Below, in pieces: positions 60,927-64,000 of a DNA stretch of 64,000 bases (the stretch's first letter is position 1; each line of letters begins with the position of its first letter). Both the position numbers and the translations under genes were made by a program. The notes below the pieces were generated by a model, which was not told the origin of the DNA, made no database searches, and worked only from the letters and a program-made list of their open reading frames with translations. Source of the stretch: Methanobacteriota archaeon (GTDB taxonomy: Archaea > Thermoplasmatota > Poseidoniia > Poseidoniales > Thalassarchaeaceae); assembly GCA_019654055.1 (NCBI GenBank), contig BPDA01000002.1, positions 5,911 through 69,910 on the forward strand, read 5' to 3'.

Positions 60927-62264
60927 TCAGCCGCGACGCCTACCATACATGAGGGCTACGACTGCGGCTGCCACCACCGAAGGGAGGCCGGCTGCAGGAA
61001 GCAGACCGCCATCATCCCCCTCTTCTTGAGGAGGCGCTACCACCGGCTCGGGCTCTTCGAAGAGGTGCGAGTTGTTCACACTCTGTGAGACCTCCGAGCA
61101 CTTCCCCGAGGAATCGCAGCCTTGGACTGAGACGATGTGCCCCCCTTCGCTCCAGAGCTCGAAGTTGATGCTAGGGGTCGACCACGTGTTCCCCGTCGAG
61201 CTCACCGAACCTGTCCGCGAGCCGTCTATGAACATCTCGAATTCGACTGACTCCCCGTCTGGGTCGCTGTACTGCCCCTGCATCGACCACTGTGACCCAT
61301 CCCATTCGGTATCGGTTATCGTCATCAATGGAGGTGAGGACTCCTTGACCAGGTCGATGTCATAGATGTGCTCCATCGGGTAAACATTCGAGTTTCCCGC
61401 AACTCTGACCCAGACGTCGACCTCGCCGGGCACGGTGTTCGATGCCGGTAGTTCCACCACCGCTTCGCCGGTGAAGGTGACTGTGACGGAGGGAGATGAC
61501 TGACCATCCTGATTCAGGCCGAGTTCGAGTTCTAACTCAGGCCACTCGGACGTGGGGGATATGGATATTGGATGCGGGTCGGAGAGAGTCGTCTCGGACG
61601 AGCTGATGGAGAACGGGACGCCGAGATTCCAGGTCCTCTCACCGGAGCTCTGCCCAGCAGGGTCGACTGCCTCGCAGGACACCTCTCCGGGGGCTCCTCT
61701 GGGAATCTCGGCCCACCACGATCGATCCGCCCCCTCAGTCAACTCTAGCGACGGGGCTCCGGTACAACTGATGTCTAGTTGGGAGACTCCGCCCTCGTCC
61801 GAGAACCATGAGGAAACCTCATCCCAATCCGCCCAGATGTGCTCGCCCCCACTCGGAGATGGGAACCAAGCACCGTCGATTGGGGCGCCATCAGTCCAGA
61901 CCGGGGGGTCATCGACGGGAATGGGCTGGGTGGTGAAATCCGCGAACAGGTCCTCCCCCAGTGGCCAATCCGCGAAATCCGCATCGGGCATCACGGTGAA
62001 CCTCAGGCTACCGTCGGAATTGACCTCGAGCGTGTGCGTAGAAGATCCATCCCCTAAGCAGGTCCCGCGAATCGGAGCAGGAATCGACGACTCCTCCTCG
62101 AAGCTCACGTCCCTGCCCTCGCACTCCTCCCACATATCCAGACGCAGGTCCTGAGTCACAGGGAAGTTGAACTCCAGACTCGCTCTAGTCATGTTCGAGG
62201 CGTTGAGGACGAGCGTGAACTGATTGCCGTCAACCACACCTGGAATTGTCATCGTCGAATTCAA
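60927..62264 (-). CDS. Secreted acidic protein with a C-terminal TM anchor, fragment 2
   Basis: It ends GGLLPAAGLPSVVAAAVVALMYGRRRG. It has no signal peptide of its own. Its frame is continuous upstream to the G7 run at 62407-62413. Confidence 0.5.
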   Translation of the reverse strand: MNSTMTIPGVVDGNQFTLVLNASNMTRASLEFNFPVTQDLRLDMWEECEGRDVSFEEESSIPAPIRGTCLGDGSSTHTLEVNSDGSLRFTVMPDADFADWPLGEDLFADFTTQPIPVDDPPVWTDGAPIDGAWFPSPSGGEHIWADWDEVSSWFSDEGGVSQLDISCTGAPSLELTEGADRSWWAEIPRGAPGEVSCEAVDPAGQSSGERTWNLGVPFSISSSETTLSDPHPISISPTSEWPELELELGLNQDGQSSPSVTVTFTGEAVVELPASNTVPGEVDVWVRVAGNSNVYPMEHIYDIDLVKESSPPLMTITDTEWDGSQWSMQGQYSDPDGESVEFEMFIDGSRTGSVSSTGNTWSTPSINFELWSEGGHIVSVQGCDSSGKCSEVSQSVNNSHLFEEPEPVVAPPQEEGDDGGLLPAAGLPSVVAAAVVALMYGRRRG

Positions 62265-62334
62265 CCAGAGTTGGACGCGGCACTCGTCGACGCCGTCAGA
62301 GGCAGGAATCGCTGTGTCGCAGTCCCGATTCTCG

Positions 62335-62955
62335 TCAGGTACGACGGGAACCTCTTCGCAGTCGTTTCCGAAGGCGGATGTGCAGTCCTTGATTTGCGAA
62401 TGTCCTGGGGGGGATGATGTTGAACTCCTCTATCTCGACTCCGTCCTCCTCCCAGCTGGTGTTCTTCCAACTGACACCCTCGCCGCCTCTGTGGTAGTCC
62501 CCGTCCCTAATTCCTATCCGAGTCAGAGTGTGCTCGATGCACTCGCTGGCCAGCGCTCTGAAGAGCTCGCGCTCATCAGTCGACAGCCAGCCGTCACCTC
62601 CGTCGTTCGGGTCGATCTCGGCCATGAACTCGTCCATGGTCACCCTGATGTCGTCGGCGAGAGTCGCGTTAATCCAAGCCACAGCACGGACATCGGCGGT
62701 CTGCCAGTCTGGACTGATGTCGAAAACGAACTCCGCCTTGGTGTATTCGAACATGTCTTCGAAGGTGATTGAGCCGCACTGGTCCTCCAGCGAACCGCCG
62801 CCTCCAAATTGCTCCATACGCAGCGGATCATCCTCGAGATATTCCTCACGCCATCCCTCGCTAGGAGATACCAGACTCGCCGTCAGCAGTAAGACGAGGG
62901 CGATGGAAGCGGTGGTCTGAACCCTCGTCATGGAAATTCTAGCGCAAGCGAGCAT
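62335..62955 (-). CDS. Same secreted protein, fragment 1 (signal peptide and N-terminal domain)
   Basis: The likely start is MTRVQTTASIALVLLLTASLVSPSEG at 62931. It joins fragment 2 as EEFNIIPP|GHSQIKDCTSAFGNDCEE. Confidence 0.5.
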   Translation of the reverse strand: MLACARISMTRVQTTASIALVLLLTASLVSPSEGWREEYLEDDPLRMEQFGGGGSLEDQCGSITFEDMFEYTKAEFVFDISPDWQTADVRAVAWINATLADDIRVTMDEFMAEIDPNDGGDGWLSTDERELFRALASECIEHTLTRIGIRDGDYHRGGEGVSWKNTSWEEDGVEIEEFNIIPPRTFANQGLHIRLRKRLRRGSRRT

Positions 62956-62984
62956 GATGATTCTATCGCCCTCATGAGAAGGAG

Positions 62985-63000
62985 TTTAGGGCAACCTAAA
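62985..63000. promoter_or_regulatory. Palindromic operator candidate 1: TTTAGG-GCAA-CCTAAA
   Basis: It is a perfect 6-4-6 inverted repeat in an AT-rich divergent intergenic region, upstream of a TATA-like tatat at 63016-63020. Confidence 0.45.
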
Positions 63001-63028
63001 ATTGATAACTGAAACTATATTCGGTAAA

Positions 63029-63044
63029 TTTAGGGTGACCTAAA
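63029..63044. promoter_or_regulatory. Palindromic operator candidate 2: TTTAGG-GTGA-CCTAAA
   Basis: It has the same half-sites as candidate 1. Its last base is the A of the transferrin-like gene ATG at 63044. Confidence 0.45.
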
Positions 63045-64000
63045 TGATAAGACAGAGAGTAATTGCCGGGATAGTATTTGGATTATTGATTTGCACAACA
63101 TTGAGCGGATGCCTAGGGCCCGAGGAAGAGAAAATCAAAATCGCATTCAAGACTCAGGATGACTACGACAATCCCGACGCCAACCCGCAGAGACTAGCCG
63201 ATTTCATCGCAGAGCAGACGGGTATGGAAGTAGAGCTGTATCCAATTTCCAGTGATCTGGCTGCTATTGAGGCCCTCAGATTCGGTCACGCCGATGTCGC
63301 CATCCTCGATGGGGGTTCTGCTTGGCTGGCTTGGCAGCAACACGGCTTCGAGGCAATTCTAGCTGACCAAAAGTCCGACGGCTCGAACTACTACATAGCC
63401 TCTGCCTGGGTGCTCAACAGCAGCGACATACAGTCATTGGAGGATCTGGAGGGTAGGGACTCGTGCCATACAGGTTGGCTCAAGTCAGCCGGGATGCTGA
63501 TGCCGATGGGATACATGATTGGGCAGGGCTTGGTCGAGGTCTCGGGAGATGAAGAGAACATCGACAGCCTGAGGACTACAATCGAGAACCACTTCGGCAA
63601 CGCTTCGATTCCCGGCAGCGGGGATGTCTACTACGGATACGGAGGGGCATTCCGATGCATGACCGAGGGCTTCGGTGATGTCGCATTTGTCAAGACCACA
63701 TCCTATGGGGACCACTGCGAGGGCAACGACTGGTGCTTGGACCGCTCTGAGTATCGAATGCTGGAACCGGCCTTCGGACGGGTCCCGAGCCATTCCGTGA
63801 TGGTCAACGCGGATGCCTACGGTGATTCAAAGACAGAGTCGATTACCATGGCCTTCCTAGCCCTAAACCTCGATTCTGAAGGCAAGTCCATCCTCGAATC
63901 GGTAATGGGCACGTCTGGGATTTCCGAAGTCGATACGAGTAGCCATCTCGGGTCATACAGCGCTGCCATCGGCAGCATCCCCGGCATAGCCGCCTACTTC
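63044..64000 (+). CDS. Transferrin-family (transferrin-lobe-like) iron-binding lipoprotein, 3' end outside the window
   Basis: This ORF is not in the ORF track because it has no stop in the window. My translation gives 319 codons with no stop. The lipobox is MIRQRVIAGIVFGLLICTTLSGC. Transferrin blocks are ADVAILDGG, NYYIASAWV, SCHTGWLKSAGMLMPMGY, YYGYGGAFRCMTEGFGDVAFVKTT and GRVPSHSVMV. Confidence 0.8.
   Translation, partial: MIRQRVIAGIVFGLLICTTLSGCLGPEEEKIKIAFKTQDDYDNPDANPQRLADFIAEQTGMEVELYPISSDLAAIEALRFGHADVAILDGGSAWLAWQQHGFEAILADQKSDGSNYYIASAWVLNSSDIQSLEDLEGRDSCHTGWLKSAGMLMPMGYMIGQGLVEVSGDEENIDSLRTTIENHFGNASIPGSGDVYYGYGGAFRCMTEGFGDVAFVKTTSYGDHCEGNDWCLDRSEYRMLEPAFGRVPSHSVMVNADAYGDSKTESITMAFLALNLDSEGKSILESVMGTSGISEVDTSSHLGSYSAAIGSIPGIAAYF

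Follow-up and report, generated by a model that had tools for sequence, protein, structure and literature searches.

TTTAGG-N4-CCTAAA palindromes at the promoter of a transferrin-like importer operon in Candidatus Thalassarchaeum: predicted operators of a DtxR-family regulator

The locus and its promoter layout

The DNA analysed here is a stretch of 64,000 nucleotides (the window; C2:5911-69910) from the genome of an uncultured archaeon, Candidatus Thalassarchaeum, of Marine Group IIb (MGIIb) in the order Poseidoniales; the genome comprises 1.30 Mb in 52 contigs, with 59.6% G+C, and is 73% complete. Bare numbers below are window positions, and positions elsewhere in the same genome carry the prefix G000 and the contig. 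On the plus strand a gene starting at 63044 runs to the end of the window at 64000 and on to G000:C2:69931; it encodes a single-lobe transferrin-like binding lipoprotein of 325 residues with the lipobox LSGC and is the first gene of an operon, followed by genes for a PhnC-like ATPase and a PhnE-like permease. On the minus strand a divergent gene (60927–62931) encodes a surface protein of about 650–680 residues with a signal peptide and a C-terminal membrane anchor. The region between the two starts holds the element with which this report is concerned, a pair of TTTAGG-N4-CCTAAA palindromes. Site 1, the predicted distal operator, occupies 62985–63000 (TTTAGGGCAACCTAAA) and site 2, the predicted proximal operator, occupies 63029–63044 (TTTAGGGTGACCTAAA); they lie 44 bp apart, start to start, and both were taken from the window sequence and set against a chance control. 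The ATG at 63044 begins with the final base (A) of site 2, and the site overlaps a Shine–Dalgarno (SD)-like GGTGA as well as this first base of the start codon. An earlier note on the same DNA had described both palindromes, their separation and the divergent start at 62931, and all were found exactly as placed there.

When up to one mismatch was allowed, the pattern TTTAGG-N4-CCTAAA occurred in the window only at sites 1 and 2, and 100 shuffles of the window gave no match. A genome-wide search for the motif with a test for enrichment had been proposed in the earlier note. Run over the whole 1.30-Mb genome, it returned three exact occurrences, compared with 0.028 expected from the base composition. 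There was no site with one arm mismatch genome-wide, the 11 sites with two mismatches resembled background, and the spacer variants N2, N3, N5 and N6 were absent from the genome. An all-or-nothing distribution of this kind (three exact sites, none with one mismatch) is typical of specific protein-binding sites and argues for such a site here. Chance is excluded as the source of the palindrome pair.

The third exact site (G000:C5:44880-44895), the reverse complement of the site 2 16-mer, lies in the 84-bp gap between divergently oriented sufC and NifU-like genes. sufC is followed by sufB and then sufD, and SufC matches its equivalog model at 319.7 bits; the NifU-like gene was assigned from a weak C-terminal domain match (19.6 bits, below the Pfam cut-off of 27 bits). 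All three sites in the genome thus precede genes of iron uptake or iron–sulfur cluster assembly. The likely TATA box of the NifU-like gene, approximately 27 nt before its ATG, shares bases with the right arm of the suf site.

Two candidates were considered for the TATA box of the binding-protein operon. The element TTGATAA (63002–63008, plus strand) adjoins the 3′ arm of site 1, so that site 1 occupies the BRE (B recognition element) position; on its other side site 1 faces the divergent gene. In an alignment of 14 orthologous Thalassarchaeaceae promoters, whose proteins are as little as ∼61% identical, a T..ATA pattern directly follows site 1 in 14 of 14, and MGIIa promoters have a clear TAATATATAT at the same position. 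With TTGATAA as the TATA box, transcription would start near 63031, inside site 2, and the mRNA would have a leader of ∼13 nt containing the SD-like GGTGA. The earlier note had instead taken tatat (63016–63020, plus strand) as the TATA box and had proposed a leaderless mRNA. The distance of this element from the start codon (it is centred 26 nt before the ATG) stands, and it fits an AT-rich peak at −33 to −25 that was found before the start codons of 253 long open reading frames (ORFs) across the genome. The element is, however, not conserved in the orthologous promoters (for example those of L035, L054, L056 and L060), several of which have no AT-rich run at this place, whereas TTGATAA is conserved. 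The leaderless layout is therefore doubtful, and TTGATAA is judged to be the somewhat likelier TATA box of the two. Upstream of the same 253 ORFs a G-rich dip was seen at −9/−8 and SD-like words were present in 30%, against 13% in a control window; the genome-wide pattern suggests a mixture of leaderless or short-leader mRNAs and SD-led mRNAs.

Under either choice of TATA box the core promoter lies between the two sites and the start region is covered by site 2; the repressor geometry described in the earlier note is retained. A site at or just upstream of the B recognition element (BRE) and TATA box, combined with a second site over the transcription start, is a repressing layout in archaea. 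On the divergent side, a likely TATA-like element of the surface-protein gene was located at 62960–62968 on the minus strand (ATTCTATCG; minus-strand reading CGATAGAAT), with its centre approximately 33 nt upstream of the ATG (62931) and with 17 nt separating it from site 1. Most of the intergenic regions in the ortholog alignment retain the block ATGATTCTATCG (62957–62968), which probably serves the divergent gene as its TATA region.

Recurrence of the sites across Poseidoniales

The comparison set consisted of 41 Poseidoniales genomes, namely the genome described above and those of 40 relatives. Between one and five exact sites were found in 34 of the 41, while the reversed control pattern occurred near zero times. 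The surroundings of all exact sites were fetched and the neighbouring genes were classified, with a distance of at most 100 nt upstream of an ORF start as the criterion. By this measure 69 of 71 distinct exact sites precede a small set of iron-related genes. The counts for individual genes overlap, since many sites are common to two divergent genes. The transferrin-like binding protein or a paralog of it accounts for 40 sites and the divergent surface protein for about 30, paired with either the binding-protein gene or FTR1; sufC/NifU-like genes account for nine, the FTR1 iron permease for five, Fea1 (a low-iron-inducible protein family) for four, ferrochelatase and a 4Fe–4S ferredoxin for two each, and a fusion of an M28 peptidase with a ZIP transporter for one. 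In divergent promoters the sites are present in both orientations. One of the two exceptions actually precedes a binding-protein paralog. The other (G005:C25:1382; L102) is flanked by genes for an S15 (X-Pro dipeptidyl) peptidase and for a surface protein in which one stretch is CarboxypepD_reg-like, and has no obvious link to iron. The core proposal of the earlier note, that a pair of DtxR/IdeR-type iron boxes serves as repressor operators at the promoter of an iron-binding protein gene, is supported by the rarity of the motif together with this placement in iron-gene promoters.

The pair is also a constant feature of the orthologous loci. Among 67 binding-protein ortholog loci from MGIIa and MGIIb, nearly all of those with upstream DNA carry one or two sites at no more than one mismatch. 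In the 14 aligned Thalassarchaeaceae promoters the conservation of the arms was 0.99 for site 1 and 0.98 for site 2, compared with 0.55 and 0.77, respectively, for the 4-nt spacers and 0.49 both for the flank upstream and for the 40 bases at the start of the coding region. Site 2 follows site 1 at a distance of 44 bp in all 14, and the place of site 1 is likewise filled throughout Poseidoniales. When distinct neighbouring pairs were counted over the whole set, the spacing was 44 bp in 24 pairs (the genus and its relatives), 34 bp in 14 pairs (MGIIa) and 20–24 bp in six. Steps of approximately 10 bp would keep the rotational register of the sites, and may reflect a constraint between two bound dimers or between a dimer and the core promoter.

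The candidate regulator and the predicted mode of control

The operator unit defined by these sites has been described in other organisms. In a crystallographic and binding study of IdeR from Saccharopolyspora erythraea each monomer was found to read one CCTAA, with one dimer using repeats 1 and 3 of the 19-bp box; when these two repeats alone were present, one IdeR dimer bound at comparable affinity, as shown by binding and stoichiometry, and TTAGGNNNNCCTAA was proposed as a redefined IdeR/DtxR consensus (PMC8464063). The DtxR-family protein TroR of Haloferax volcanii has the motif TTTAGGC-NNN-CCTAAAANAN by chromatin immunoprecipitation sequencing (Martinez-Pastor et al., Nucleic Acids Research 2023/24; PMC10783522). 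On a siderophore promoter of H. volcanii tandem copies of this motif lie ∼30 bp apart, and either copy suffices for iron-dependent repression in reporter assays; TroR represses uptake genes and activates dpsA (PMC10783522). Both window sites and the third genomic site contain two inverted CCTAA pentamers exactly 4 bp apart, as in the definition of the single-dimer operator. The earlier note had regarded the spacing as shorter than that of DtxR/IdeR boxes. This part of its claim was not borne out, as TTAGG-N4-CCTAA is precisely the single-dimer unit (PMC8464063) and also the TroR motif (PMC10783522).

The classical 19-bp DtxR/IdeR box with four CCTAA repeats (TTAGGTTAGSCTAACCTAA) was considered and rejected, because the second pentamer pair, offset by 5 bp, is absent: the positions expected to hold TTAG and CCTAA read GCAA/AATTG at site 1 and GTGA/ATGAT at site 2. 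The pentamers and the 4-nt spacer of the IdeR/DtxR single-dimer site are thus identical to those of the Poseidoniales sites, but the bacterial IdeR usually places two overlapping dimers on its 19-bp box, whereas here no form other than the single-dimer unit occurs, and two such units, placed separately 44 bp apart, frame an archaeal core promoter. The TroR box shares the TTTAGG-N4-CCTAAA arms, the location in iron-uptake promoters and the frequent tandem arrangement at distances of tens of base pairs. It differs in having a C after TTTAGG, where Poseidoniales prefer G; in a pair spacing of ∼30 bp, compared with 44 bp in the Thalassarchaeum genus and 34 bp in MGIIa; in a distance from the start codon of ∼100 nt, compared with at most ∼60 nt here; and in its targets, which are siderophore genes in H. 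volcanii and the transferrin-like ABC (ATP-binding cassette) importer, Fea1, FTR1 and suf in Poseidoniales (Thermoplasmatota). H. volcanii also has three DtxR paralogs, compared with one here, and the Poseidoniales regulator is likened to TroR by family membership. A further resemblance is to MDR1 of Archaeoglobus fulgidus and to other archaeal repressors whose binding sites cover or adjoin the TATA box and the start site; MDR1 is a DtxR-family repressor that occupies several operators in the promoter of an ABC operon for metal uptake and blocks recruitment of the polymerase. This kind of operator is therefore already known from other archaea and from bacteria; the lineage is new, the mechanism is not.

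The genome contains a single DtxR-family gene (G000:C17:7515-8168, minus strand), encoding a protein of 218 residues with both PF01325 (52.3 bits; cut-off 26) and PF02742 (60 bits; cut-off 27). Its matches among solved structures are DtxR, IdeR, SloR and ScaR. Exactly one gene of the family is present in 39 of the 41 genomes, two in one (G023, a member of the Thalassarchaeaceae) and none in one incomplete genome. Fur (PF01475) is absent from the genome itself, from 20 other species of the genus and from 38 of the 41 genomes of the order. The three genomes with a Fur-family gene (G028, G032 and G037) all belong to one MGIIa genus. For Rrf2 only a sub-threshold match was obtained in the genome. 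With no Fur match and an Rrf2-like match below the cut-off, control of the Fur or Rrf2/IscR type was rejected.

The first 8 nt of the DtxR-family gene are shared with the end of another gene, which encodes a 520-residue membrane protein with zinc-ribbon-like CxxC pairs at its C-terminus (G000:C17:7515-9723), an arrangement that suggests co-transcription and translational coupling of the two.

At positions where the aligned manganese-type solved structures have Asp and Glu, the regulator has Met, Cys, Glu and His, and these residues are kept in every Thalassarchaeaceae ortholog whose sequence covers them. They probably correspond to the iron-type primary metal site of DtxR (Met10, Cys102, Glu105 and His106 in DtxR numbering). 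In G023 the stronger-scoring of the two DtxR-family genes (L113, on contig C7) has the manganese-type Asp/Glu.

From the identity of the sites, their distribution and the presence of one suitable regulator we infer, with high confidence, that both palindromes are operators of the sole DtxR-family protein and that they mediate iron-dependent repression of the transferrin-like importer operon. An Fe2+-loaded homodimer would bind each TTTAGG-N4-CCTAAA, with each winged-helix domain reading one CCTAA pentamer. The dimer at site 1 would sit on or beside the BRE and TATA box, and that at site 2 would mask the start codon along with the transcription start and ribosome-binding region; together they would exclude TFB/TBP and RNA polymerase from the promoter. 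The shut-off would affect the operon of the transferrin-like Fe(III)-binding lipoprotein and the PhnC/PhnE-type ABC importer, and probably the divergent surface-protein gene as well. Under iron scarcity the apoprotein would leave the DNA and the genes would be expressed. The same regulator would be expected to act at the single site between sufCBD and the NifU-like gene.

Several observations weigh against this assignment. In a hand alignment the counterpart of Gln43 of IdeR, a residue in contact with the leading C of CCTAA, seems to be Glu. Of the other explanations, the first, which is considered unlikely, keeps the regulator and the sites and changes the signal or its sign: the protein would respond to Mn2+ or to several divalent metals, or would act as an activator at some promoters such as that of sufCBD. 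The best NCBIfam similarity of the regulator is to the model of the manganese-dependent regulator MntR (NF047407; 89 bits, compared with 50 bits for the actinobacterial DtxR model, both far below their cut-offs), manganese sensors, SloR among them, are found among its nearest solved structures, and a ZIP-family transporter is among the site targets. The suf site lies ∼13 nt upstream of a conserved TATA-like TTCAAAA before sufC. In archaea a site upstream of a TATA-like element can signal activation rather than repression, and repression at sufC is uncertain for this reason. TroR acts in both directions in H. volcanii, repressing uptake genes and activating dpsA (PMC10783522). Opposed to a manganese signal are the Met/Cys/Glu/His residues of the metal site, which differ from the Asp/Glu of the aligned manganese-type relatives, and a target set that is overwhelmingly iron-related (the transferrin-like protein, Fea1, FTR1, suf, ferrochelatase and ferredoxin) and in which no manganese transporter was seen.

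The second explanation, that a transcription factor of another family binds the palindrome and that the match to the DtxR/TroR motif is a coincidence, is given a very low probability. It draws on the completeness of the genome, as at 73% another regulator could be missing from the assembly, and on the position of the regulator gene relative to the sites: no site with at most one mismatch was found within ∼1.5 kb of the DtxR-family gene in 12 relatives, and none with at most three mismatches near it in the genome itself, so that neither co-localization nor autoregulation gives a clue that links the protein to the site. However, the arms and spacing of the motif are identical to experimentally verified sites of two DtxR-family proteins (PMC10783522; PMC8464063), and the DtxR-family gene is single-copy in nearly every site-bearing genome, with Fur absent and Rrf2 below the cut-off.

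That the palindromes are RNA or DNA hairpins, as a translational or stability element at the start codon, or functionless sequence derived by chance or from repeats, has a negligible probability: each can form a stem of 6–7 bp with a 4-nt loop (modest energies of −5.7 and −7.1 kcal/mol, with z values of −2.0 and −3.2) and both the SD-like GGTGA and the ATG fall partly or wholly within site 2, but a protein site is favoured because the arms are conserved as sequence and not as mere pairing, with no compensatory changes and the same 12 bases recurring across the order, and furthermore site 1 most likely lies outside the operon transcript, the sites stand in both orientations in divergent promoters, Rfam gave no family match (only a sub-threshold snoRNA match elsewhere in the region), and chance is excluded by the window shuffles and the genome count.

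The importer, the surface protein and further targets

The binding protein scores 81 bits against the Pfam family Transferrin (PF00405; cut-off 20.3) and 86.9 bits against Phosphonate-bd. Its closest solved structures are eukaryotic transferrins, with melanotransferrin first (E = 1.9e-38), followed by lactoferrins and serotransferrins. It shares the blocks LDGG, YY, SCHTG and YYGYGGAFRC with transferrins. We take these to be the transferrin blocks that carry the Asp, Tyr, carbonate-binding Thr and Tyr ligands, and a VPSHSV stretch resembles the transferrin His block. Identity as the phosphonate-binding protein PhnD was rejected, as the scores stayed well under the cut-offs both for TIGR03431 (48.9 bits; cut-off 261.1) and for the subfamily model (65.9 bits; cut-off 112). 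The PhnC-like ATPase likewise scored 152 against a cut-off of 266, and the PhnE-like permease fell just under its own (213.1 compared with 216.7).

A survey of the PhnE-like permease (G000:C2:70666-71565) and the PhnE-like genes of 27 relatives showed at most one strong PhnE-type permease per Poseidoniales genome; where the contig permits a check, this gene belongs to the operon of the transferrin-like protein and is found 2–3.5 kb away from the operator sites. 'Phosphonate transport' has been counted as a core trait of Marine Group II (MGII; PMC6336850). This trait probably corresponds to the importer described here, which would be iron-regulated, and is then likely to be a mis-annotation, because the PhnE-type transporter sits behind a predicted iron-repressor operator together with a transferrin-like binding protein. 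Such a reassignment, if true, would change the view of what MGII archaea take up.

A wider proposal is offered tentatively, and at slightly less than an even chance of being right in full: the sites would define an order-wide Poseidoniales iron regulon, the core of which is the sole PhnE-type ABC importer, in fact a transferrin-like (in one species Fea1-like) Fe(III) importer; the surface protein of ∼650–680 residues would be a new component of iron acquisition; and the strict spacing of 34 or 44 bp would reflect the fixed rotational register of two dimers bound on either side of the TATA box. The uncultured Poseidoniales (MGII) rank with the most abundant archaea of the plankton and are numerous in the surface ocean, and neither a description of gene regulation in MGII nor one of this operator in the lineage was found in the literature searched. 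An operator that is so sharply defined, and present only a few times in each genome, would offer a direct handle on iron sensing in MGII, and the regulated genes could serve as markers of iron stress in metatranscriptomes.

The divergent surface protein matches no Pfam or NCBIfam family. Its gene is a probable member of the regulon, as judged from the placement of the sites, and the regulon thereby flags this family-less protein as a possible component of iron acquisition. In the window the gene is split into ORFs of 206 and 445 residues (60927–62955) by a 1-nt indel beside a run of seven G at 62407–62413. In the closest species (G008) the orthologous protein is encoded by a single ORF of 675 residues, and the split is probably an assembly error, not the mark of a pseudogene.

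Ferredoxin is a target in relatives, and upstream of the ferredoxin gene of the genome itself no site with three or fewer mismatches was found. In one species of the genus (L101; G005:C7:53000-64500) a lipoprotein of the Fea1 family, which is the algal low-iron-inducible protein family, replaces the transferrin-like protein before the PhnC/PhnE-like genes and stands behind a pair of sites at 2795 and 2839, again 44 bp apart. The same 11-kb stretch contains two further sites, one upstream of a binding-protein paralog, behind which come a glucose/sorbosone-dehydrogenase-like gene and ferrochelatase, and the other upstream of the M28–ZIP fusion.

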